Shown here piece after piece: positions 6,095-64,000 of a DNA stretch of 64,000 nt; position 1 is the stretch's first letter; each line of letters begins with the position of its first letter. This DNA is from Candidatus Marinacidobacterium sp. Its GTDB lineage: Bacteria; Acidobacteriota; Vicinamibacteria; Marinacidobacterales; Marinacidobacteraceae. Location of the stretch: assembly GCA_965204755.1 (NCBI GenBank), contig OZ242011.1, positions 2,528,001-2,592,000 on the forward strand. The letters are read 5' to 3'. The position numbers and the translations under genes were made by a program. The notes beneath the pieces were generated by a model. That model worked only from the letters and a program-made list of their open reading frames with translations. It did no database searches and was not told the DNA's origin.

Positions 6095-8827
6095 ATGATG
6101 CAGATCACAAGGAAGTCGAGTCCGCTGCGCGGGCTGACTGTCCTTCTCGCCCTGATGCTGGGCGCCGGCCTCGTGCTGTCCGGGTGCGGTGACGACGACT
6201 CCACCACTACGACTCCGGCGCCGGCGCCGGCTCCTCCGGCGCCGCCGGCCCAGCCGGATCCGGTCAGCGTTCCCGGCGGTCTCACGGTCTCCGCCACCGG
6301 CGAGGACTTCATCGAGTTCAGTTGGGAAGCGGTCGAAGGCGCCTCCGGCTACGACATCCAGATGAGCATGACCGAGGGCGACTTCAGTTCGTCCATGATG
6401 GCCACCGTCACCGCGACGATGCACCGGTTCACGGTCTCGCCGTCCACGACGGCGTACGCGCGGGTGCGGGCCAACATGGACGGTCGCGAGAGTGACTGGA
6501 GCGGCGCGGTGATGGGGATGAGCATGGCCGCTTCGCTCACCCTCGGCACGCCGATGCCGGAGGTTTCCAGCACCGGCCCGGACCACATCGAGTGGACTTG
6601 GGATGCGGTTGCGGACGCCGCCGCCTACCAGGTTCGGGTCGCCGCCAGCGCGGACGGACTGGACATGGCGACCGCCGAGATCACCACCGCCACCAGTTAC
6701 CGGGTCACCGCCGCGGCGGAGACCACGATGTACATCAGCGTTCGCGCCGCGGCCGGGACGCCTACCTCCCCGGTCGTCGGCGACTGGAGCGATGCGGTGG
6801 CGGGGACGAGCGATGTGGCGCCCCTGCCGTTCGTGGTCAGCATGACTCCGCCCGAAGCGGGAGCGGACAAGGATTGCAGCGGCCAGGCCTTCTGCCCGGA
6901 TGACGGGACGGATCCGGAGAAGGCCCGAGCCTCCGTGAACACCAAGATGATGGTCGTGTCCTCGCACACTGCCCAAGTGTCGCCGGTGTTCCTCGAAGAC
7001 GCCGGCGCGGTCGCCTTGAGCGACGGCGAGAACACGCCGTTCGCCAATGTGAACTGGAGCGCCCTGCAGTCGGTGGTTGCTAACGAGGGCGTGACCTTCA
7101 TGTTCCAGCGCGTCGCCGCCGCCGCCGGGCAGGAACCGGCCGCGATGGGAGACGCGATGTACATCACCTGCGGCCCCTTCCGTTGCTCCGAGGCGATGGA
7201 TGAGGCCCCGTCCGCTCCGGAGATTTCCATCTCGGACTCCGCCGCCTGCAACGAGTTCGAATTGGATCTGAAACTGGACATCGGCCTCGGCTACAACGGA
7301 CGCAACGCCGACGATACGGCAGACGCCGCAGGCGCCTTGTACGATCGGAATGTCGGCATAGATGCGGGCTGGGTGTACACCTCGTCGGCCACCGCGACCG
7401 TCGTTCACGAGTTCGAAGGTGTCCCCGGTCCCACCGGAGGGAACCTGAAGGTCAAGGGGGCGGACATCAGCAAGACTTCCAGGCCGACGGCGCTCGTCAT
7501 GGCCCGAGGAACCGGGGACAAGAAAAAGGCGGTCAACTACTTCGGTGGAGCGAGCCAGGGGACCGAGTTGACCTCGACAGAGGCCGGGCCGGTCTGGAAC
7601 GGTATGGACGGCGGTGACTGTCTCGGGACAAATATCGCCACGTCCAACACTACTTCCTCGTATGGCTACAACAACATCGGCGGAACCGCCGGTGAGCGCC
7701 GCACCCTGCAGCGCCCGCAGGAGTGTTTCCGGATCATCACCGGCGGTCGCGACACCCCTGGCGCCGCCACGACGATTCGTCGGAACTACCTTCCCGGATA
7801 CAAGATCCATGTGTCTCCCAACGCCAGCGTGACCTGGGCCGGGAGCGCGGTCGCCTGGGAGAAGGGAACGGATCCCTTCGACGGCTACGACTGCGAACCG
7901 CACACCATTTCCGCAGCCGAAGAAGTGGACGACCAGTTGGGTTCCCTCTGCGAGAGTTACCAGGAACAGGTGCGTGGCTGGTGGGGCAACGGGCTCGCCA
8001 AGAGCAATGGATCGTTCACCTTCGAGTATGTGGTGACCAGCGCCTACGCCGCCGACGGCACTCGGACGGTGGATGCCCCGACTTTCCCTGTCGACAGTCG
8101 GACTGCCGCGACCGAGGTGGGTGCCGGCAAGAAGTTCGTCCGGATCAATGTCGTTGCGAAGTCGCCTACTTGGAATGAAGACTTCGCCACCACCGCCGCG
8201 GGAGACGAGACGGAAGTCCACAAGGCCAAGGACAGCAGGTGGACGAGCCTCTGGCTCGTGGACTCCACGGCAGTGGATGCCGGTGATACCCCCAGGTCGC
8301 GCGACGGCACGGCTCCGGACGCCGACATGTACCGCGTGCTCACCGGCGACGGCAGTCTGCGGGGCGCCTATGTCGGCGCCTATCCGACCTCCGGGGATGA
8401 CGACCGGTCCATCCGCTCCCACAGCGGCACCATCGTCGCCCCGCGGGCGGTGTTCACGGTGGATCTGCTGGACGACGACGGCGACCCGATGTACGGCGAC
8501 TTCGGCAAGGTGGACTTCCAGCACCTCGCACGCAGCACGAACGAGGAGAGGGGCAAGGCTGACAACTACCCGTCCACGAACCCGGATGCCTATGCGTGCT
8601 CCGACGACGACGGCACGCGGTGCGATTCCGAGCAGGAGTTCGAGGGGACCATCACCTTCACCCTGTATCCCGACACGAACGACTGCACCGAAGAGATCGA
8701 TGTCGCGTTCACCTGCACCTGGGACGCCGACGGTGACGAGGATCGCACCGGCGACGCCAGCGGCGCTACCGCGGGAACCTTCGGCATGACGAATATCGGT
8801 AACTTCGTCAAGTGCGAGGCCAGTTGA
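6095..8827 (+). CDS. Surface lipoprotein, paralog 2: two FN3 domains plus a Cys-rich C-terminal region
   Basis: AGGAGG RBS; lipobox VLSGC; colinear with 1935-4676 including CSGQAFCPD, ITCGPFRCS, GDFGKVD, CTWDADGD and CEAS. Confidence 0.88.
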   Translation: MMQITRKSSPLRGLTVLLALMLGAGLVLSGCGDDDSTTTTPAPAPAPPAPPAQPDPVSVPGGLTVSATGEDFIEFSWEAVEGASGYDIQMSMTEGDFSSSMMATVTATMHRFTVSPSTTAYARVRANMDGRESDWSGAVMGMSMAASLTLGTPMPEVSSTGPDHIEWTWDAVADAAAYQVRVAASADGLDMATAEITTATSYRVTAAAETTMYISVRAAAGTPTSPVVGDWSDAVAGTSDVAPLPFVVSMTPPEAGADKDCSGQAFCPDDGTDPEKARASVNTKMMVVSSHTAQVSPVFLEDAGAVALSDGENTPFANVNWSALQSVVANEGVTFMFQRVAAAAGQEPAAMGDAMYITCGPFRCSEAMDEAPSAPEISISDSAACNEFELDLKLDIGLGYNGRNADDTADAAGALYDRNVGIDAGWVYTSSATATVVHEFEGVPGPTGGNLKVKGADISKTSRPTALVMARGTGDKKKAVNYFGGASQGTELTSTEAGPVWNGMDGGDCLGTNIATSNTTSSYGYNNIGGTAGERRTLQRPQECFRIITGGRDTPGAATTIRRNYLPGYKIHVSPNASVTWAGSAVAWEKGTDPFDGYDCEPHTISAAEEVDDQLGSLCESYQEQVRGWWGNGLAKSNGSFTFEYVVTSAYAADGTRTVDAPTFPVDSRTAATEVGAGKKFVRINVVAKSPTWNEDFATTAAGDETEVHKAKDSRWTSLWLVDSTAVDAGDTPRSRDGTAPDADMYRVLTGDGSLRGAYVGAYPTSGDDDRSIRSHSGTIVAPRAVFTVDLLDDDGDPMYGDFGKVDFQHLARSTNEERGKADNYPSTNPDAYACSDDDGTRCDSEQEFEGTITFTLYPDTNDCTEEIDVAFTCTWDADGDEDRTGDASGATAGTFGMTNIGNFVKCEAS

Positions 8828-8893
8828 TCGAAGACCGACCTTCCGGGATGGCCTGAGGCGGGCTGACCGCCCACAGAGCCCTCCCACCCGAGT

Positions 8894-8921
8894 CCCGGGG
8901 CCTCAGGGCCCCGGGGCTTTT
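8894..8921 (+). terminator. Intrinsic terminator
   Basis: CCCGGGGCC-loop-GGCCCCGGG followed by GCTTTT; similar to the 4741 terminator. Confidence 0.75.
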
Positions 8922-9284
8922 CCCTTGTACGCGGAGACTCGCAGGGCGGGCGCCTCCGCATCGAGCGGCGTCTCGGTCGCACGCCCGATCCCTCGAGTCG
9001 CGCCGACCGCTCGCCCGTCCGCTCCCGTCCCTCATCCACCGGGACGGCGCGGCCCCTTCAACGCGGCGCGCTCCCGTTCGACGGCCGGAGCCCTCCTCCC
9101 CCTCCGCCATGCGCCTCCCGCGCCCGCGGGCGTCGGCCTCGGCCGGGAGCCCGTTCGCAGACCTCGCCCGGCCGACCGACCGCCGCCACTCCCCAGGGCG
9201 GGTCGTTTTCGAGGCCGGTTGACGCGGGGTCCGGCGCGATACGCTGAGAGGCGCTGTCGAGGCGCTGAGCCACACAGGAGAGGA

Positions 9285-55778: not shown

Positions 55779-55813
55779 CCGCATCAGGAATCTTGACAGG
55801 AGCCTTCGCCACC

Positions 55814-58477
55814 ATGTCCATCCAGTTGACCGTACGGGCCCGGCGGGCGCTCGAGCGCGCCGGCGAACTCGCCGGGGAGGGGCGGCACGCGCAGGTCGCG
55901 CCGCTCCACCTGCTCGCGGCGCTCCTCGAGGACGACGCGTCCTCCGCGCCCGCCGCCCCGGCGGGGCAACGCCCGGTCGAGGGACTCGTCCCGCGCCTCC
56001 TCCGCCGCCTGTCGGTCGAACCGGCGGCGGCGCTCGCCCGCGTCCGCCGCAAACTCGGCGAACTCCCGGTCCGCGGCGGCGGCGGCCCCGACGAACCCGC
56101 GCCATCGCGGGAACTCGGCGCCGACCTCCGCCGGGCGGCGAAGGAAGCGGCCCGGCTCGGCGACGAGTATGTGAGCGTCGAGCACCTCCTCCTCGCCCTG
56201 ACCGACCGGCGCTCCGCCGCGGCGCCGCTCCTCCGCGAGGGCGGCGTGGAGCGCGAACCCCTCGAAGCCGCCGTCCGGGAGACCCGCGGCGCCTCCCGCG
56301 TCACCACCCCCGACCCGGAGGCCGCCCTCGCCCCGCTGGAGCGCTACTGCCGCGACCTCACCGCGCTGGCCGCCGAAGACCGGCTCGACCCGGTCATCGG
56401 GCGCGACGACGAGATCCGGCGCGTCATCCAGATCCTCTCCCGCCGCGCCAAGAACAACCCGGTGCTCCTGGGCGAGCCGGGGGTCGGCAAGACCGCGGTC
56501 GCCGAAGGGCTGGCCGTCCGCATCGTGAAGGGCGATGTGCCCGAAGGGCTCCGCGAGCACCGGGTGGCGGCGCTCGACCTCGGGGCGCTGGTGGCCGGCG
56601 CGAAGTTCCGGGGTGAGTTCGAGGAGCGGCTGAAGGCGGTGCTCTCCGCCGTCACCGACTCCGGCGGCAAGATCGTCCTGTTCATAGACGAACTCCACAC
56701 CGTGGTCGGCGCCGGGGCGACCGCCGGGCCGATGGACGCCTCGAACCTGCTCAAGCCGGCGCTCGCGCGGGGCGAACTCCACTGCATCGGCGCGACCACG
56801 CTCGACGAGTACCGCCGCCACATCGAGAAGGACGCGGCGCTGGAGCGGCGGTTCCAGACCGTCCTGATCGAGGAGCCGAGCCGCGAAGCGACGGTGACCA
56901 TCCTCCGGGGGCTGAAGGAGCGCTACGAGGTGCACCACGGCGTCCGCATCCGGGACGCGGCGCTGCTGGCCGCCGCCGCGCTCTCGGACCGCTACATCTC
57001 CGGGCGGTTCCTGCCGGACAAGGCCATCGACCTGGTGGACGAGGCCGCCGCCCGGCTGCGCACCGAGATGGACAGCGTCCCCACCGAACTCGACGAGGTG
57101 GAGCGGGAGTTGCTGTCGCTCCGCATCGAGCGCGAGGCGCTCAGGAAGGACGAGGACGCCGCCTCGGTGGCGCGGCGCACGGAACTGGCGGGCCGCGTCG
57201 CCGCGCGCGAGGAGGCCGCCCGGACGCTCCGCGCCCGGTGGCGGGAGGAGAAGGAGCGGTTGGCCGCCGTCCGCGGGCTGCGCGAGCGGATCGAGGAGAC
57301 CGACCGGCAGATCGAGCGCGCCGAGCGCGAGGCGGACCTGGAGCGCGCCGCCGAACTGCGGTTCGGGACGGCGCCGGCGCTCCGGGAGGAACTGGCGGCG
57401 GCGGAGGCGCGGCTGGCGGCGAACGGGAAGTCCGACGGGGAGACGAAGTTGCTCCGCGAGGAAGTGGACGACTCCGATGTGGCCTCGGTGGTCTCCCGGT
57501 GGACCGGGATCCCGGTGGAGCGGCTGCTCGAAGCGGAGCGGACGAAGTTGCTCCGGCTGCCGGAGTTGCTCCACCGGCGGGTGGTCGGACAGGAGGAAGG
57601 CGTCCGGGCGGTCGCCGACGCGGTGCTCCGCGCCCGGGCCGGGGTCGGGGACCCGGACCGGCCGCTGGGGACCTTCCTGTTCGCCGGGCCGACCGGGGTG
57701 GGGAAGACGGAACTGGCGCGCGCCCTCGCCGCCGAACTCTTCGACGACGAGAAGGCGATGGTGCGGCTGGACATGAGCGAGTACGGCGAGAAGTTCGCGG
57801 TGTCGCGGCTGGTCGGCGCCCCGCCGGGGTATGTGGGCTTCGAGGACGGCGGGCAGTTGACGGAGGCGGTGCGGCGGCGTCCGTTCTCGGTGGTGCTGTT
57901 CGACGAGATCGAGAAGGCGCACCCGGAGGTGCACACCGTCCTGCTGCAGGTGCTCGACGACGGGCGGCTGACGGACTCGCAGGGGCGGGTGGTGGACTTC
58001 CGCAACGCGCTGCTGATCCTGACCTCGAATGTGGGGAGCGCGGAGATCCTGTCGCTCGCGGAGCGGGGGGCGGGGTACGCGGAGATCCGGCGGCGGGTGA
58101 TCGCGGAGTTGCGGCGGGCGTTCCGTCCGGAGTTCCTGAACCGGGTGGACGAGACGGTGGTGTTCGAGAGCCTGTCGCGGGAGCAGGTGGCGGAGATCGT
58201 GGGGCTGCAGTTGGAGCGGCTGCGGACTCGGTTGGCCGAGCAGGGGATCGGGATGGGCGTCTCCCCGGAGGCCCGGCGCGCGCTGGCGGCGGCGAGTTAC
58301 GAGCCGGCCTTCGGGGCGCGTCCGGTGCGGCGGACGATCCAGCGGCTGGTGGAGACGCCGGCGGCCCGGCTGATCCTCGCCGGGGAGTTGGAGGCGCCGG
58401 GGACGCTGTCGGTCGTTGTCGGGGAGGGCGGCGGGGTGGCCCTTCGGGCGCTGCCCGCCGCGGAAGTCGCCGCCTGA
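55814..58477 (+). CDS. clpB: ATP-dependent chaperone ClpB
   Basis: [39 protein letters not shown], long coiled-coil middle domain, [26 protein letters not shown]. Confidence 0.95.
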
Positions 58478-58495: not shown

Positions 58496-59665
58496 TCAGC
58501 GGGCGGCGAGTTCCTCGGCGAAGGCGCGGAGGCCGATGACTTCGACGCCGTCGCGCAGCGGGTAGCGGTCGTCCCCGGGATAGACGACGAAGGTCCGCTC
58601 GGGGCGGAGCGCGGCGCGGGCCTCGTGGAAGCCGCGGGAGACGGTCGGGGCGAGACCCAACTTCGCCTCGACCGCCCAGCGCCCGCCGCCGGGGAAGTCG
58701 AGCGCCAGGTCCATCTCCGCGCCGGCCGCGGTGCGGAAGAAACTCGCTTCGGTCCGCTCCGGGGCGGCGGCGATGGCGTTCTCGATGACGAAGCCCTCCC
58801 AACTCGCCCCGGCGACGGGATGCCCGGCGAGTTCGTCCCATGTCTCCGGGCCGAGGAGGGCGTGGACGAGGCCGCTGTCGCGCAAGTACACCTTCGGCGA
58901 CTTGACCAGGCGGCGGCCGATGTTCGCGGTGAGCGGCGGCAGCCGCCGGAGGAACATCAGGTCGGAGAGCAACTCCAGGCAGCGGTTCGTCGTCCGCGCC
59001 GCGATGCCGAGCGCCGCGGCCAGGCGGGAGGAGTTCAGCAGCCCGCCCTGGGAGTGGGCGAGCATCGTCCAGAGCCGGGCCACCACGCCCGGAGCGGCGC
59101 GGGGCGCGAACCAGGCGATGTCCCGGGCGACGATCGTCCGCAGGAAGTCGTTCCGGACTTTCCGGCTGCGGGCGTCGCCCTCGGCGCGGTAACTCTCCGG
59201 GAACCCGCCGCGCAGCCAGAGCCGCCGCCGCGCCGCCGGATCGTCCTCGATTTCCAGCGCGTCGAGCGGGCCGAGTTCCACTTCGGCGACCCTCCCGGCG
59301 AGGCTCTCCCCGGCGCGGGCCAGCAGGTCGAGCGACGCCGAGCCGAGCAGCAGGAACCGCCCGGCGCGCGCGCCCCGCCGCCGCCCCCGGTCGATCAGGC
59401 CGCGCAGGACCCGCAGGATCTCCGGCGTCCGGTGGATCTCGTCGAGGACGACCAGCCGGTTTTCGAGGGGCTCGAGGAAGAGGTTCGGATCGCGCAGTTT
59501 CGCCAGGTCCGCCGCGTCTTCGAGGTCGAGGTAGAGCCCGCCCTTCGCCTCGGCGACGGCGAGCGCCAGGGTGGTCTTTCCCGCTTGCCGGGGGCCGAGG
59601 AGGAATACGGCCGGCTGTCGGTCGAGGGCTTCGACGACGGTCGCGAAGGTGCGGCGGGGAATCAT
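58496..59665 (-). CDS. AAA_14 ATP-binding protein with DUF4143 domain
   Basis: LLGPRQAGKTTLA, LDEIH, FLLLGSAS, ESLAGR, LRGGFP, KSPKVYLRDSGL, EMDL; start at ATG 59665, not the track start at 61390. Confidence 0.92.
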   Translation of the reverse strand: MIPRRTFATVVEALDRQPAVFLLGPRQAGKTTLALAVAEAKGGLYLDLEDAADLAKLRDPNLFLEPLENRLVVLDEIHRTPEILRVLRGLIDRGRRRGARAGRFLLLGSASLDLLARAGESLAGRVAEVELGPLDALEIEDDPAARRRLWLRGGFPESYRAEGDARSRKVRNDFLRTIVARDIAWFAPRAAPGVVARLWTMLAHSQGGLLNSSRLAAALGIAARTTNRCLELLSDLMFLRRLPPLTANIGRRLVKSPKVYLRDSGLVHALLGPETWDELAGHPVAGASWEGFVIENAIAAAPERTEASFFRTAAGAEMDLALDFPGGGRWAVEAKLGLAPTVSRGFHEARAALRPERTFVVYPGDDRYPLRDGVEVIGLRAFAEELAAR

Positions 59666-59781
59666 CGTCCTTGTATTTTCGGTACTTGGATGTCGGATAT
59701 TCAAGGATGTCGTGTTCGCATCCGGCGCCGGCGCGGTCTCGAAGGGGCCTTCGAGCGCGAAGGGACTCGATCCGCATCCGG

Positions 59782-59835
59782 TGTCAACCGGCGCCGAAAA
59801 TGTCCCACTTTTAAGCAACGAAAACGCCCCACCTT
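59782..59835. mobile_element. Isolated IS21-family-like terminal repeat (remnant)
   Basis: TGTCAACCGGCGCCGAAAATGTCCCACTT with a second internal box CGAAAACGCCCCACCTT; no istA/istB in the window. Confidence 0.65.
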
Positions 59836-59849
59836 GGGGAGTGGATGCG

Positions 59850-61890
59850 GTCGGTGGGTGAGGGGGTCGATCCGCGGCATCGAGCCGGTGAAGGGGCTCG
59901 ATCCGGGCGTCCTGCGGGTGCGAAGGGGGTCGATCCGCGTCGTGAGTCGGAAAGGGGGTCGATCCGCCGGTCGGCGGGTGAAGGGGTCGATCCGCGATGT
60001 CGAGCCGGTGAAGGGGCTCGATCCAGGTGTTCTGCGGGTGCGAAGGGGGTCGATCCGCGTCGTGAGTCGGGTAGGGGGTCGATCCGCCGGCCGGTGGGAC
60101 AAGGGGCTCGATCCGCGATATCGAGCCGGTGAAGGGGCTCGATCCGGGCGTCCTGCGGGTGCGAAGGGGGTCGATCCGTGTCGTGAATCGGATAGGGGGT
60201 CGATCCGCCGGTCGGTGGGTGAAGGGGCTCGATCCGCGATGTCGGGCCGGTGAAGGGGCTCGATCCGAGTGTCCTGCGGGTGCGAAGGGGGTCGATCCGC
60301 GTCGTGAGTCGGGTAGGGGGTCGATCCGTCGGTTGGCGGGTGAAGGGGTCGATCCGCGATATCGAGCCGGTGAAGGGGCTCGATCCGGGCGTCCTGCGGG
60401 TGCGAAGGGGGTCGATCCGTGTCGTGAGTCGGGTAGGGGGTCGATCCGCCGGTCGGTGGGTGAAGGGGGTCGATCCGCGATATCGAGCCGGTGAAGGGGC
60501 TCGATCCGGGCGTCCTGCGGGTGCGAAGGGGCTCGATCCGCGTCGTGAATCGGATAGGGGGTCGATCCGCCGGTCGGTGGGTGAAGGGGCTCGATCCGCG
60601 ATGTCGGGCCGGTGAAGGGGCTCGATCCGGGTGTCCTGCGGGTGCGAAGGGGGTCGATCCGCGTCGTGAGTCGGGTAGGGGGTCGATCCGCCGGTCGGTG
60701 GGTGAAGGGGCTCGATCCGCGATATCGAGCCGGTGAAGGGGCTCGATCCGGGCGTTCTGCGGGTGCGAAGGGGGTCGATCCGCGCCGTGAGTCGGGTAGG
60801 GGGTCGATCCGTCGGTTGGCGGGTGAAGGGGTCGATCCGCGATATCGAGCCGGTGAAGGGGCTCGATCCGGGCGTCCTGCGGGTGCGAAGGGGGTCGATC
60901 CGCGCCGTGAGTCGGGTAGGGGTCGATCCGTCGGTTGGCGGGTGAAGGGGTCGATCCGCGCCGTGAGTCGAGTAGGGGGTCGATCCGTCGGTTGGCGGGT
61001 GAAGGGGTCGATCCGCGCCGTGAGTCGAGTAGGGGGTCGATCCGCCGGTTGGCGGGTGAAGGGGTCGATCCGCGACATCGAGCCAGCGAAGGGGCTCGAT
61101 CCGGGTGTCCTGCGGGTACGAAGGGGGTCGATCCGCGTCGTGAGTCGGGTAGGGGGTCGATCCGCCGGTCGGCGGGCGAAGGGGCTCGATCCGGGCGTCC
61201 GGCGGGTGCGAAGGGGGTCGATCCGCGCCGTGAGTCGGGTAGGGGGTCGATCCGTCGGTTGGCGGGTGAAGGGCTCGATCCGCGACATCGGGCGGGCGAA
61301 GGGGCTCGATCCGGGCGTCCGGCGGGTGCGAAGGGGGTCGATCCGCGTCGTGAGTCGGGTAGGGGGTCGATCCGCCGGTCGGTGGGACAAGGGGGTCGAT
61401 CCGCGATATCGAGCCGGTGCAGGGGCTCGATCCGCGGGTCCTGCGGGTGCGAAGGGGGTCGATCCGTGTCGTGAATCGGATAGGGAGTCGATCCGCCGGT
61501 CGGTGGGTGAAGGGGTCGATCCGAGAGATGGGGCCGGTGCAGGGGCTCGATCCGGGCGTCCTGCGGGTGCGAAGGGGGTCGATCCGCGTCGTGAGTCGGA
61601 TAGGGGGTCGATCCGCCGGTCGGTAGGTGAAGGGGGTCGATCCGCGAGATAGGGCCGGTGCAGGGGCTCGATCCGGGCGTCTTGCGGGTGCGAGGGGGCT
61701 CGATCCGCGCCGTGAGTCGGCTGGGGGTCGATCCGCCGGTGGTAGGTGAAGGGGGTCGATCCGCGAGATGGGGCCGGTGAAGGGGCTCGATCCGGCTGTC
61801 TTGCGGGTGCGAAGGGGGTCGATCCGCGCCGTGAGTCGGGTAGGGGGCTCGATCCGCCGGGTGGCGGGTGCGAAGGGGGTCGATCCGTTC
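59850..61890. repeat. Higher-order tandem array: ~16 units of 120-121 bp, each of four ~30-bp subunits sharing the core AGGGG(G/C)TCGATCCG
   Basis: About 68 cores by manual count; core-to-core spacing 31/32/29/28-29 bp; four recurring spacer types. Confidence 0.95.
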
Positions 61891-61967
61891 GAGCGGAGGC
61901 CGGAGGGAGTTCGCGATCCCTCGCGCCGGGTGGCCGGGAGGCCGGTAGCGGGCGCGACCGGGGGCGG

Positions 61968-63251
61968 CTACCGGGGAGATTCCGGCGCGGCGCGATAGGC
62001 CTGCTCGACTCCGCGGGCGCCGACCGGGTGGCGGCGTTCGAGGAGTCCTTCTTCGGCCATGGGCCGGAGGTGGCGCTTCCGCAGGTTGCGCTCGTTCATC
62101 CCCAGTTGGGAGGCGAGTTCGGCGCGGGTGGTCCAGCGCCCCTCGCAGAGTCGCACGATCACCGCGCGAAGGGCGGTCTTGCGGGGCCGTTTGCCGAGGG
62201 CGGCGACGGCGGCGCGAAGGTCGTCCGGCAGTCGGGTCGGCGGTTCGGGAGCCGGGTCGGTCGGCTCGGGGCGGTCGGGGGAGTCGCGGCGGGGGGCGGG
62301 GGCGGGGGTGGTTTCGGTTGGCTCGGGCGGCTCGGGTTCGGGCGTGGCGGCGTCGGCGTCCGGGGGGGTCGCGACGGGCGGGGCGCGGGGCGGGGGTTCC
62401 GGGCTCGGCGCGGCGGTTTCCGCTCGGTCGTCCGGCGACTCCTCCGGTCGGCGGGTTCGGGGGCGGGCGGTTCGGGGGCGGGCGGTTCGGGGGCGGTCGT
62501 AAGGCGGGGGCGCCGCGCCGGCCGGCTCGGTGGACGGGGGAGGGGACGCGGGCGGCGGTTCCGGCGGCGGCTCGGGGGTCGGTGTCCCGACCGCGCCTTC
62601 GGCGGAAGGCGGCTCGGCGCGTCGGGTCGGGGGTTTCGCGGGAGTCCGCTTCCGGGGCGGGGCGACCGCGCGGGTGTCCGGCGCCGGCGGGGCAACCTCC
62701 TTCGGCGCCGGCGCGCGGGCGGGGGGGTCGGGCGGCGGCGCCTCGATGACCGGCTTCGGTCCCTCCGGGGCTTCGCCGGTGACGGCTTCGTGGAGTTCGC
62801 CGAGGGCGACGCCCACCCCGGCGGCGTCCCGCGCGGTGTCCGCCCAGCGGGCGCCGCCCTCGCGCATCTGCTTGCCGGCGGCGGCCAGTTGCCCGCCGAC
62901 TCGGCCCAGGCGGCCGCCGGATTCGCTCCACTTCCGCCCCACCCGGTCGAAGCGGTTTCCCATCTTGCCGACGCCCTGCGCGACCTTCGCGGCGGCGTTC
63001 GCGATCCGGGCGCCCCGGTAGGCCGACCGGCCCGCCACCCGCAGCCCCCGGCCGAGGTGGATGCCGATCCAGCGCGCCCAGAGCCAGGCGAACCGCGCCG
63101 CCGCGATGGGCTTGGCGAGCCACTGCCGCAGCCGGTCGAGCCCCGGCGGCTCGTCCGGGGAACGGAGGACGACGCCGGACTCCGCCGGCTCGGGGGACTC
63201 CGCCGGTTCGCGGTCGGGGCCGGGGGAGCGGGGGACGGTTCCGGACTCCAT
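61968..63251 (-). CDS. Proline-rich protein with C-terminal winged-helix domain (Fic-like C-terminal wHTH type)
   Basis: C-terminus LRAVIVRLCEGRWTTRAELASQLGMNERNLRKRHLRPMAEEGLLERRHP...QAY; long P/E/A linker; start uncertain (63251 or 63332). Confidence 0.7.
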   Translation of the reverse strand: MESGTVPRSPGPDREPAESPEPAESGVVLRSPDEPPGLDRLRQWLAKPIAAARFAWLWARWIGIHLGRGLRVAGRSAYRGARIANAAAKVAQGVGKMGNRFDRVGRKWSESGGRLGRVGGQLAAAGKQMREGGARWADTARDAAGVGVALGELHEAVTGEAPEGPKPVIEAPPPDPPARAPAPKEVAPPAPDTRAVAPPRKRTPAKPPTRRAEPPSAEGAVGTPTPEPPPEPPPASPPPSTEPAGAAPPPYDRPRTARPRTARPRTRRPEESPDDRAETAAPSPEPPPRAPPVATPPDADAATPEPEPPEPTETTPAPAPRRDSPDRPEPTDPAPEPPTRLPDDLRAAVAALGKRPRKTALRAVIVRLCEGRWTTRAELASQLGMNERNLRKRHLRPMAEEGLLERRHPVGARGVEQAYRAAPESPR

Positions 63252-63324
63252 CGGTGCGGGGGCTCTGCCTGCCGCCGAGACTATCCGACCCCGGCGGCGC
63301 CCGCCGGGGTACGGTTTCGGCCCG

Positions 63325-63696
63325 ATGCTCACCGCCCCGTTCTCTCGGCGGCCTCGGGCTGCCGGGCCGTACTTCTTCCTCGTGCTCGAGGAAGAGCACA
63401 GTTGCCGGAGCCGGCGGGAACTCCTGCCCGCCGTGCTCCGCGCGCTGGCGGCGCGGGATCCCGGTTTCCTCGAGCGGGCGGCGGCGCGACTCGGCGGCCG
63501 CGCGCGTCCCTACCTCGCCCGGGACCGCGGGGCCGTGATGCGCGGACGCCGGTGGCGGATTCCTCCCGCCCGACTTCCGGGAGGATGGTGGGTCCGCAGC
63601 CAGTTCAACCGCGAGAGTCTGGCGAGGATCCTCCCGCGAGTGGCCGAGGCCGCCGGACTGCGCTGGGGCGAAGACCTCATCGTCGACCTGGACTGA
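63325..63696 (+). CDS. Stand-alone SeqA C-terminal-domain-like protein (putative methyl-DNA binder)
   Basis: L..L...D..F...A...L.GR.R.Y.A.D...P..LPG.WWV..QFN resembles by eye E. coli SeqA-C (L.GRTRVYFAAD...P..VPGTPYWVITNTN). Confidence 0.6.
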   Translation: MLTAPFSRRPRAAGPYFFLVLEEEHSCRSRRELLPAVLRALAARDPGFLERAAARLGGRARPYLARDRGAVMRGRRWRIPPARLPGGWWVRSQFNRESLARILPRVAEAAGLRWGEDLIVDLD

Positions 63697-63709
63697 ACTC
63701 CCGCGCCGT

Positions 63710-64000
63710 TCAGCGGCCGGCGTTTCCTTCCAGGACCGGCAGCGCCTCCTCGCAACGGGCGATGGTCGGGCGGGCGTACGCCGCGCGAAGCGACAGCAGG
63801 TCCCGGTCTTCCGACACCAGGTAGTCGGCGTCCCCGTCGATCGCGCAGAGCAGGAACACCTCGTCGTCGGGGTCACTCGGCCGGGTCGGGGCCTCGGCGG
63901 AAACCAGCCGCACGCGCTCGAAAGCGGCGGAGAGGTAGGCGACCAACTCCTCGGCGCGCTCGATCGGGCTTCCCCGCGCCACCAACTTCCCCAGGTACTC
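63710..64000 (-). CDS. PIN-domain putative toxin (5' end outside the window)
   Basis: DPDDEVFLLCAIDGDADYLVSEDRDLLSL. Confidence 0.85.
   Translation of the reverse strand, partial: EYLGKLVARGSPIERAEELVAYLSAAFERVRLVSAEAPTRPSDPDDEVFLLCAIDGDADYLVSEDRDLLSLRAAYARPTIARCEEALPVLEGNAGR

Follow-up and report, generated by a model that had tools for sequence, protein, structure and literature searches.

A tandem repeat array with a winged-helix gene and a stand-alone SeqA-like gene in Candidatus Marinacidobacterium sp. may represent two unrelated neighbouring units

In Escherichia coli, the N-terminal oligomerisation domain of SeqA underlies binding to paired sites. Direct-repeat arrays adjoining the gene of a winged helix-turn-helix (wHTH) protein are a hallmark of iteron and centromere systems, and plasmid modules of this kind include ParR-parC of R1, TubR-tubC, omega-heptads, and Rep-iterons. 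Fusions of SeqA with RAMA are noted in a passage of Iyer, Zhang and Aravind (2016; PMC4738411). The window (the whole stretch of DNA analysed, 64,000 nucleotides) contains a GATC-rich tandem array, a wHTH gene and, divergent from the latter, a 123-aa open reading frame (ORF) resembling the C-terminal domain of SeqA. A preliminary description had joined the three into one methylation-sensing module. The evidence presented below tips slightly toward a locus made of two unrelated things, a module of wHTH gene plus array and a defence island that holds the SeqA-like gene.

The array (59848..61887, + strand) spans 2,040 bp and contains 68 TCGATCC cores; TRF and the core count bore out its earlier description as a real, non-random tandem array. 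TRF reported two overlapping rows, one with a period of 121 (11.2 copies, 90% matches, score 2155) and one with a period of 120 (6.4 copies, score 1083), and higher-order periods were found at 121, 241, and 362 bp. About 17 higher-order units of 120–121 bp each comprise four sub-units of ~30 bp (28–32 bp), in which a CCGAC-like box is followed by a terminal core GGGG[C/G]TCGATCCG. All 68 cores ([C/G/T]TCGATCC) are in + orientation, spaced by 29 (23 times), 31 (16 times), 32 (16 times), 28 (11 times), or 30 bp (once). GATC was present in 67 of the 78 TCGA anchors of the array, and the whole window held 418 GATC sites compared to 366 ± 16 in shuffled sequences. A CRISPR array was ruled out, as the “spacers” are four sub-unit types that return in a set order within a higher-order repeat; no cas genes were found among the scanned neighbours. 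Searching the array against Rfam gave no match at E ≤ 0.1, two-unit RNA folds had z-scores of −0.97 and −1.41, and no AT-rich stretch was found in the window array.

At the left edge of the array, in the reading direction of the wHTH gene, lies a terminator-like hairpin (CCCCAAGGTGGGG, then a T-rich tail; 59827..59839, − strand). It came from a consensus scan that gave 4 sites compared to 1.4 ± 1.3 in shuffled sequences and is a candidate terminator. In close strains, copy number and register of the array vary (contig joints at 59764 to 61180 in three runs); the contigs of these relatives are short and break within repeats, establishing only that the flanks are retained and that an array is present at an unchanged left border. 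Scanning genome contigs for a three-core TCGATCCG pattern gave, among the matches listed, almost only single background matches. The GC skew of the genome is weak and noisy, and dnaA is located at 1.82 Mb.

The wHTH gene (61968..63251, − strand) encodes a Pro-rich protein of 427 aa, delineated from the ORF, an AlphaFold2 model, Foldseek, and weak Pfam matches. Its 3′ end is 81 bp from the array, and since it is on the − strand it points into the array, as described before. The AlphaFold2 model shows three long helices at residues 38–157, a Pro-rich disordered linker of ~180 aa (residues 160–340), and a single wHTH fold at residues 343–421 (pLDDT > 90). The top Foldseek matches of the wHTH were the C-terminal wHTH of a Fic protein (4rgl), Zalpha, and ArsR/MarR regulators. 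While this Fic-family domain (PF21247, Fic-like_C) was the best match, the protein differs from Fic proteins in having no Fic domain, and its N-terminal helical region belongs to no known family. Pfam matches to HTH_20 and Fic-like_C (E = 0.023) were weak; one homolog, however, reached 30.5 bits for Fic-like_C, above the cut-off. An Atlas look-up gave only low scores (0.81), 22% of one cluster carrying Fic-like_C, and PADLOC has no model covering the wHTH or the SeqA-like protein. Two paralogs are present elsewhere in the same genome, and homologs were found in 17 of the 24 genomes of the same bacterial family. The recognition helix differs among the paralogs, reading NLRKRH in wHTH-A (the window paralog), SLSTRH in wHTH-B, and SLNRTY in wHTH-C. 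The proteins are best read as a lineage-specific, multi-copy family that combines a coiled coil, a linker, and a wHTH. A related-locus search of metagenome and genome contigs with the closest wHTH relatives (P0155–P0160) and SeqA-like orthologs (P0002–P0005) found none.

That the wHTH gene is linked to the array, as had been claimed, was supported by the paralog and homolog loci. In its own genome all three paralogs lie within ~130 bp of an array with its own motif: TCGATCC for wHTH-A, GAATTGTGTATAG arrays immediately upstream of wHTH-B (2,046 kb), and AAAGACACAGGC arrays ~100 bp upstream of wHTH-C (1,047 kb). Only 4.0% of the genome is within 200 bp of any array (at least 100 bp long, period up to 35; n = 80). 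Each motif recurs at 4–9 further loci. For motif A there are at least four other places with TCGATCC arrays, the large ones at 340 kb, 2,162 kb, and 2,781 kb; motif B has nine bipartite loci and motif C five. The C-type elements carry two repeat clusters around an AT-rich box of 35–40 bp in a genome of 72% G+C. At the centre of B- and C-type elements lie A-type cores, a hint of cross-talk among the paralogs, and these elements are located between ordinary housekeeping genes, not solely in islands.

In the sister genome G001, 109 units of CGGCGGATCGACCACCCTG form a 2.1-kb array at a distance of 1.3 kb from the wHTH ortholog (54% identity). In other genera, 11 of the 20 homolog loci had an array with a period of 32–33 (or 64) at 0–540 bp from the gene; these loci were hand-picked among the first entries in a list of 62 places outside genus g1, long contigs being favoured, and the relatives sampled for the pairing are not independent samples. 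The array was on the 5′ side of the gene in all 11, and the window array, 3′ of its gene, differs in this from 13 other loci. No array was found in the remaining 9 of the 20 loci; in tblastn, five of these matched only the C-terminal wHTH and one gave no match. The unit layout is common across genera, with GCCGACCCGG-TTATCGCACCC and AACCGACTCCGG-TATCGCACCC elsewhere compared to GCCGACCGCG-GATCGACCCC here. The regions around wHTH-family genes are repeat-rich and island-like, with IS elements, Fic, PIN, and restriction-modification (R-M) genes, and co-location with arrays could therefore partly reflect a shared habitat. The G001 ortholog is flanked by Fic genes, which are also present at three further homolog loci. 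No description of array-plus-wHTH modules was found in the literature on repeat arrays and winged helices or on SeqA-like domains and restriction, where the note on SeqA-RAMA fusions was the one pertinent passage.

The wHTH and SeqA-like genes diverge from an intergenic region (63252..63324) that, read from the sequence, measures 73 bp, as stated before. One core-like word, GAGACTATCCGACCCC, occurs in it, with GAGTATCCGACCC at the same spot in the sister genome, and may be regarded as a candidate operator. On the other side of the array is a DUF4143/AAA_14 ATPase gene (58496..59665, − strand; Pfam DUF4143, E = 6.6e-36; AAA_14, E = 1.8e-23) that also matches the PADLOC candidate PDC-S01 (E = 3e-83); the array is located ~180 bp upstream of the start of this gene. 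DUF4143 matches number 27 in the genome, of which three are within 1.5 kb of an array. While this ATPase was as previously reported, the flanking “PIN toxin” proved not to be a lone gene. The PIN_3-domain gene, whose 3′ part lies at 63710..64000 (− strand; Pfam PIN_3, E = 2.5e-7; 150 aa as a whole), overlaps at its start with the stop of a type III Res gene (1073 aa); ahead of Res, just past the window end, is a type III Mod gene (1097 aa). Mod-Res-PIN forms a type III R-M operon with the PIN_3 gene last (Pfam ResIII and N6_N4_Mtase; PADLOC MTase_III, E = 6.6e-149, and REase_III, E = 1.5e-13). The SeqA-like gene is convergent with this operon and not part of it.

The SeqA-like ORF (63325..63696, + strand) is 123 aa long, as described, and so is each of its four orthologs. 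Its likeness to the SeqA C-terminal domain was supported by a profile of five sequences, which matched SeqA in the PDB (3fmt, E = 1.8e-4), and by VIA-align of an AlphaFold2 model (pLDDT 77.9), in which SeqA took the top two ranks (Z 7.4 with 95 aligned residues and rmsd 3.2, and Z 7.1; next 4.6), although according to the tool a Z of ~7 is a frequent best score for models without a true match. Foldseek ranked SeqA first as well, but at E = 1.1 nothing was significant. Pfam SeqA (PF03925) stayed below threshold (E = 0.003; 18.1 bits compared to a cut-off of 25.5). By structure comparison the protein has the SeqA C-domain fold; residues 1–11 are disordered, and the domain begins at about residue 15. 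The GRxRxY.A.D and PG.WWV motifs (including WW..N) are retained and align with SeqA, and these positions are the most conserved in an alignment of 169 domains of the family, while the base-contact loop reads SQFN here, TNYS in the family consensus, and TNTN in SeqA. Among 66 scanned of the 342 representative relatives, five passed the Pfam SeqA cut-off (for example P0089 with 43.4 bits), and homology of the ORF to SeqA is therefore transitive. Taken from the sequence and the model, the ORF is a real though distant relative of the SeqA C-terminal domain, and the protein is probably a reader of DNA or modified DNA.

The SeqA proteins of E. coli and Vibrio (PF03925; 3fmt, 1lrr, 3sk7) were the best and the sole consistent match of the 123-aa protein in both profile and structure. 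In contrast to SeqA, it has no N-terminal oligomerisation domain, is sub-threshold in Pfam, and is set in a defence island instead of replication control, its relatives being mostly nuclease fusions. The caution given earlier, that SeqA-like domains also occur in restriction-associated proteins and that adjacency to the array may be coincidental, was well founded: HSDR_N-type nuclease domains were found in 24 of the 66 scanned relatives, HEPN_Swt1 in three, and Mrr_cat in one. In the closest long relatives, HSDR_N, Mrr_cat, or HEPN_Swt1 precedes one or two SeqA-like domains on the N-terminal side; of the 150 relatives listed, about a dozen are comparable to the 123-aa protein in length. A paralog of 495 aa in the same genome, nuclease-type with two SeqA-like domains and neighboured by an N6/N4 methyltransferase, a Fic gene, and an AAA_21 gene, shares the nuclease plus SeqA-like build of type IV-like restriction proteins. 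The 123-aa gene is likewise beside an R-M operon, here of type III, but its product differs from a type IV restriction enzyme in being neither fused to a nuclease nor encoded in an operon with one, and Pfam detected no nuclease or other effector domain in it.

According to the methylation-sensing proposal, GATC methylation of the array would be read by the SeqA-like protein, on its own or together with the wHTH protein, and the three parts would form one module for replication timing, segregation, or defence. The two genes are divergent neighbours 73 bp apart, the SeqA homology retains the GRxRxY and WW..N motifs, 67 GATC sites lie 28–32 bp apart, the genome has a D12-class (Dam-family) methyltransferase match (E = 1.1e-29), and the same gene order occurs in close relatives from other samples. 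In G001 remnants of the two, the 5′ end of the wHTH gene and the SeqA-like gene, again lie next to each other, and a functional tie between both genes may therefore exist. Nevertheless, we consider such a module very improbable. An array of at least 100 bp was found in none of the 18 SeqA-like loci of relatives, and outside genus g1 no listed SeqA-like place was near a listed wHTH-family place (six genomes with both). G001 holds 649 paired cores, yet its SeqA-like copy is frameshifted and the 18 kb around it are array-free. In the window genome, two flanks of the other TCGATCC arrays were scanned, and neither a SeqA-like nor a wHTH gene was present. GATC is not where the core is constrained: in the G001 array 24 of 95 units lack it, and the homologous cores of other genera read TATCGC or ATAGAC instead. 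The SeqA-like protein is without the oligomerisation domain, and the context of its family is restriction nucleases. The spacing is not kept at three helical turns, the distance cited earlier for SeqA, as the sister-genome arrays are spaced at 15, 19, or 32 bp. The idea of a unit in which a methyl-GATC reader coats the array was not supported, GATC being dispensable within homologous arrays, and GATC in the array is best explained as an accident of the site of the wHTH-A paralog, not as a methylation signal.

The arrays might also be neutral or selfish minisatellites, grown by slippage and unequal exchange in hypervariable islands where wHTH genes are co-resident and no protein binds the arrays specifically. 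The higher-order repeats, the variation between close strains, the neighbourhoods rich in IS, Fic, PIN, and R-M genes, and an IS21 element that splits one array in G024 would all fit, as does the lack of shared flanks. A common mobile element carrying the arrays was rejected, because no flanking sequence is shared by them. Minisatellites seem unlikely, however, as the core is constant across at least four unlinked arrays and two species despite changing flanks and spacing, three motifs each accompany a different paralog in one genome, the array is 5′ of the gene within 540 bp in all 11 positive loci of other genera, and B- and C-type elements also occur between housekeeping genes. A descent from integrated plasmids or mobile replicons, with the arrays as iterons or partition sites and the wHTH protein as a Rep-like or centromere-binding protein, would account for direct repeats adjoining the gene of the presumed binder (in the window, in G001, at two paralogs, and at 11 of 20 loci in other genera), for motifs that differ by paralog, for two clusters flanking a central region in some elements, with an AT-rich box in the C-type, and for the frequent mobile-element genes nearby. 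We give it little credence all the same. Pfam scans of the neighbours found no ParA, ParM, TubZ, or replication gene; in contrast to ParR/parC and TubR/tubC no motor NTPase is adjacent, the DUF4143/AAA_14 ATPase being of a different family. The protein has one wHTH compared to the two winged-helix domains of iteron Rep proteins, and none of ParR, TubR, and Rep shares its build of a helical region, a ~180-aa Pro-rich linker, and a single wHTH; unlike the C-type elements, the window array has no AT-rich element of the kind expected in an iteron replicon. The arrays are far longer than centromeres or iterons (up to 68–109 units), each motif has 5–9 dispersed copies, some between housekeeping genes, and the wHTH family is confined to one bacterial family, where it occurs in 17 of 24 genomes.

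The arrays are best read as cognate binding-site arrays of the wHTH family, the protein-to-array assignment coming from adjacency, and the pair in the window is most likely one of many of this kind in the bacterial family. Under the slightly favoured reading of two unrelated units, the motif of the window module would be the CCGAC-like box plus GGTCGATCC, repeated 68 times, and the wHTH would read the variable box of each unit. Many copies of the protein would occupy neighbouring units of the array, and likewise of the arrays with the same motif at other chromosomal positions, and the helical N-terminal region may hold these copies together or tether them. By analogy to a plasmid centromere or iteron set, loading of the cognate protein could serve autoregulation and form a large nucleoprotein block. 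The SeqA-like protein would be a free-standing form of a reader domain usually fused to nucleases, placed against the type III Mod-Res-PIN operon. A further, more tentative possibility is that the paralogs are mutually orthogonal operator-array systems, each coating the arrays of its own motif, with the nucleoprotein bodies tethering, insulating, or organising the chromosome. With up to 68–109 sites per array and 4–9 dispersed loci per motif, they would then be a motor-less chromosomal counterpart of plasmid centromeres.

The locus also calls for caution: a GATC-rich array beside a SeqA-like gene resembled a methylation module, but its GATC proves incidental once relatives are compared. With the stand-alone SeqA-like protein, a reader domain known mostly from fusions to restriction nucleases is also seen in a free-standing form. 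If the pairing is true, a single genome offers three orthogonal pairs of protein and site array with very high site numbers, which might be put to use as natural tools to label or tether DNA, and the wHTH family would provide a new example of the use of repeat arrays by bacteria outside plasmids.

The window (G000:C1:2528001-2592000 of the organism's own genome, a single 3.98-Mb contig with 71.7% G+C) contains one tandem array according to TRF, located at 59848-61887 and reported with a period of 121 bp (11.2 copies, 90% matches, score 2155) and then with a period of 120 bp (6.4 copies). The ~121-bp unit consists of four ~30-bp sub-units in fixed order, each ending in GGGG[C/G]TCGATCCG. All 68 cores of the array are on the + strand, with spacings of 29 (23 times), 31 (16 times), 32 (16 times), 28 (11 times) and 30 bp (once). 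A terminator-like hairpin was found at the left edge of the array (59827-59839) on the strand of the neighboring winged-helix (wHTH) gene; Rfam gave no match for the array, and folding of the array RNA revealed nothing unusual.

On the left, the array is flanked by a DUF4143/AAA_14 ATPase gene (58496-59665, - strand) that matched the PADLOC candidate PDC-S01, one of 27 DUF4143/AAA_14 matches genome-wide. On the right, the gene of the 427-aa proline-rich protein wHTH-A (61968-63251, - strand) has its 3′ end 81 bp from the array and is separated by a divergent gap of 73 bp from the 123-aa SeqA-like ORF (63325-63696, + strand). The arrangement of these flanking genes, as given in the preliminary description, was confirmed. 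The SeqA-like gene is convergent with a type III restriction-modification (R-M) operon, Mod-Res-PIN (L040:1713-8681, own genome 2,591,713-2,598,681, just past the window end), with 14 bp between the 3′ ends; the PIN_3 gene (150 aa, from 63710, - strand) has its start overlapping the Res stop. Mod (1097 aa) matched PADLOC MTase_III (E = 6.6e-149), and Res (1073 aa) matched REase_III and ResIII. The 3.98-Mb genome has 26 N6_N4_Mtase matches. Upstream of the DUF4143 gene, an 894-aa ORF (window 55793-58477, + strand) was read by eye as a putative ClpB-type chaperone.

The SeqA fold proposed for the 123-aa ORF held. Pfam returned SeqA as the sole match, below the cut-off (E = 0.003; 18.1 bits, cut-off 25.5), and phmmer against PDB sequences found SeqA chains exclusively (E ~0.2). 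A profile built from the ORF and four orthologs (P0002-P0005, 123 aa each, 67–86% identical) reached the SeqA structure 3fmt at E = 1.8e-4, the next unrelated chain following at E = 1.1. With the AlphaFold2 model (pLDDT 77.9), Foldseek ranked SeqA first at a non-significant E = 1.1, and an independent structure search ranked SeqA of E. coli and V. cholerae first and second (Z 7.4 and 7.1, 91–95 residues aligned, next 4.6). As Z ~7 is a common best score according to the tool's own warning, we gave more weight to the agreement between methods than to Z alone. The 123-aa ORF is a distant but genuine relative of the SeqA C-domain; the SeqA N-domain is missing, and SeqA YWVITNTN reads WWVRSQFN in this protein.

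An exhaustive search identified 342 representatives of SeqA-like relatives at E ≤ 1e-3. Pfam domains were determined for 66 of the 150 listed among them, the selection covering the highest-ranked and the longer proteins. HSDR_N or HSDR_N_2 restriction-nuclease domains were present in 24 of these 66, HEPN_Swt1 in three, HTH_17 in three, HARE-HTH in two, and Mrr_cat and Mrr_N in one each; another 24 were without any Pfam match. SeqA itself was matched at E ≤ 1e-3 in 11 of the 66, and five of these 11 reached or exceeded the cut-off. The most conserved stretches of an alignment of 169 domains, G-R-x-R-x-Y-x-A and G-W-W-x-x-T-N, correspond to SeqA GRTRVYFAAD and YWVITNTN. The own genome encodes one SeqA-like paralog of 495 aa (L039:5589-7076, ~493.6-495.1 kb), in which two SeqA-like domains in tandem follow an N-terminus of nuclease type; its neighbors are an N6/N4 MTase, a Fic gene and an AAA_21 ATPase. 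R-M-type architectures with SeqA domains have already been mentioned in the literature (PMC4738411). The 123-aa ORF is thus a member of a defence-associated reader family.

The preliminary description had tentatively joined array, wHTH protein and SeqA-like reader into a methylation-sensing module. The strict core GGGGBTCGATCCG (motif A) occurs 162 times in the own genome, with no occurrence of the reversed control, and forms further large arrays at 339,974-341,756 (period 15-16), 2,161,900-2,163,110 (period 32) and 2,780,725-2,782,400 (opposite strand, period 28-32) in addition to small clusters. Next to the 340-kb and 2,781-kb arrays, Pfam analysis identified a TonB-type receptor, a membrane protein, selB and an ABC permease, and neither a SeqA-like nor a wHTH gene in these scanned flanks. 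Paired TCGATCC cores numbered 254 in the own genome and 4–20 per genome in 40 relatives, except 649 in the sister genome G001 of the same genus; the relatives' tallies (TCGATCC cores, SeqA-like and wHTH places) include the unpublished genome G033, whose share in them is limited to background numbers. The best SeqA-like match of G001 adjoins a type I R-M system (HsdM, HsdS), and its 18-kb surrounding stretch is without an array. Here, a divergent pair like that of the window (L050:7804-8196 and 8640-9009) consists of a truncated wHTH N-terminal fragment, 73% identical across residues 14-80, and a SeqA-like gene with a frameshift that falls after the N-terminal strand and before the first helix. 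Across 18 SeqA-like loci of relatives (59,249 bases) no array of at least 100 bp was detected. GATC is not invariant either: in the G001 array beside the wHTH ortholog, TCGATATC or TCGATACC was present in 24 of 95 units, and the invariant part of the units is AGGGTGGTCGAT. These results speak against the array and a methyl-GATC reader forming one unit.

The wHTH gene offered a different association. In the model of wHTH-A, three long helices (38-157) lead into a disordered proline-rich linker (160-340), and the wHTH at 343-421 is modelled with confidence. Structurally, it comes closest to a Fic protein's C-terminal wHTH, to Zalpha and to ArsR/MarR regulators. Within the own family, homologs were detected in 17 of 24 genomes, against none of 16 in two sister families, and a single genome gave up to nine matches; no name for them was found in the sources searched. 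Their neighbors include Fic, PIN, DUF4143, R-M, Dnd-like, AlbA_2 and IS genes, with no partner gene conserved among the neighbors examined. The full-length ortholog in G001 (54% identity) is flanked by a Fic gene on either side and lies 1.3 kb from an array of 2.1 kb, whose 109 units of 19 bp carry the core GGTCGATCC as in the window. For other genera, 20 loci were fetched from the top of 62 places listed outside the genus, choosing genomes with long contigs. In 11 of these 20 an array with a period of 32-33 (or 64) lies 0–540 bp away, every time on the 5′ side of the gene; the nine loci without an array comprise five with only the wHTH part in tblastn, one without a tblastn match and three full-length genes.

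Two paralogs of wHTH-A are encoded elsewhere in the own genome: at paralog B (2,046 kb) GAATTGTGTATAG arrays (motif B) end at the gene start, and at paralog C (1,047 kb) AAAGACACAGGC arrays (motif C) lie ~100 bp upstream. All three paralogs are therefore no more than ~130 bp from an array; positions up to 200 bp from an array make up 4.0% of the genome. In gene sense, the repeat units are laid out alike, with a CCGAC-like box first and a variable box after it; in the window this second box reads GATCGACCCC and differs from TATCGCACCC of two other genera at three of ten positions. Paralogs A, B and C also have different putative recognition helices. On the basis of homolog adjacency, the 3/3 paralogs, the common unit layout and the differing recognition helices, we assigned the array to the wHTH gene, whose product would be its putative binding protein.

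Motifs B and C form 14 bipartite elements across the genome, each with two clusters of 4–9 direct repeats ~200–300 bp apart. Nine are B-type (357.9, 756.0, 1208.0, 1659.9, 2045.5, 2895.4, 2970.8, 3119.1 and 3494.2 kb) and five C-type (245.5, 588.0, 1046.7, 2291.7 and 3356.8 kb), the latter with a 35-40-bp AT-rich box containing AAGGA[GC]TTA. A wHTH paralog follows directly downstream of one B-type and of one C-type element; B and C elements are also found between ordinary genes (for example amidase, EPSP synthase, pyruvate kinase and histidine genes) and near DUF4143 genes. In the center of several B and C elements there are one to three A-type cores, which explains most of the "singleton" A cores of the genome. 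No flanking sequence common to the arrays was found; next to several repeat elements (e.g., 358.2, 755.7, 1207.9, 2895.8 and 2971.1 kb) stands a ~35-bp conserved word, GGTTGCCCCGCTTTCGTGGACGGGTCGTAG or its complement.

Other repeats were observed alongside. In G001, the wHTH ortholog has a CRISPR-like array at a distance of 3 kb (L051:43-4908, ~37-bp repeat GTCGCCGGGGCTTAGGCTCCGGCCTTCGTTGAGCG, period ~72-75), and a similar repeat occurs in the own genome at 3,176.6 kb. In G024, a relative of another genus, IS21-type copies (IstA, IstB) abut GCGTCTATCCC-type 32-bp arrays (L172:7350-10820, L185:7961-11536); at L172 the IS splits one such array in two, and at L185 it lies between a GCGTCTATCCC-type and a different 32-bp array. 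Tandem repeats of the own genome with periods of 342–387 bp and lengths of up to 108 kb (850,503-958,630; 513,168-538,331; 3,527,219-3,546,639) are presumably giant repetitive protein genes.

For the 1.8-kb wHTH and SeqA-like stretch (window 61900-63700), 26–62% of sampled words were present in sequencing runs labelled sponge or marine metagenome. Their contigs covered the DUF4143, wHTH and SeqA-like genes at roughly 93–99% identity, and in three runs the left flank (59764) was joined to another array register (61180). Close relatives therefore keep the architecture with an array of different size or arrangement, which is shared descent and not independent support. The compared relatives are few and mutually related, the genus comprising two genomes.

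The features first described at this locus were confirmed. Of the interpretation given to them, the SeqA fold and the link between wHTH gene and array are supported and the methylation-reader system is not. No description of a recurrent wHTH-plus-cognate-array module was found in the literature searched, and it is this module that makes the locus interesting.
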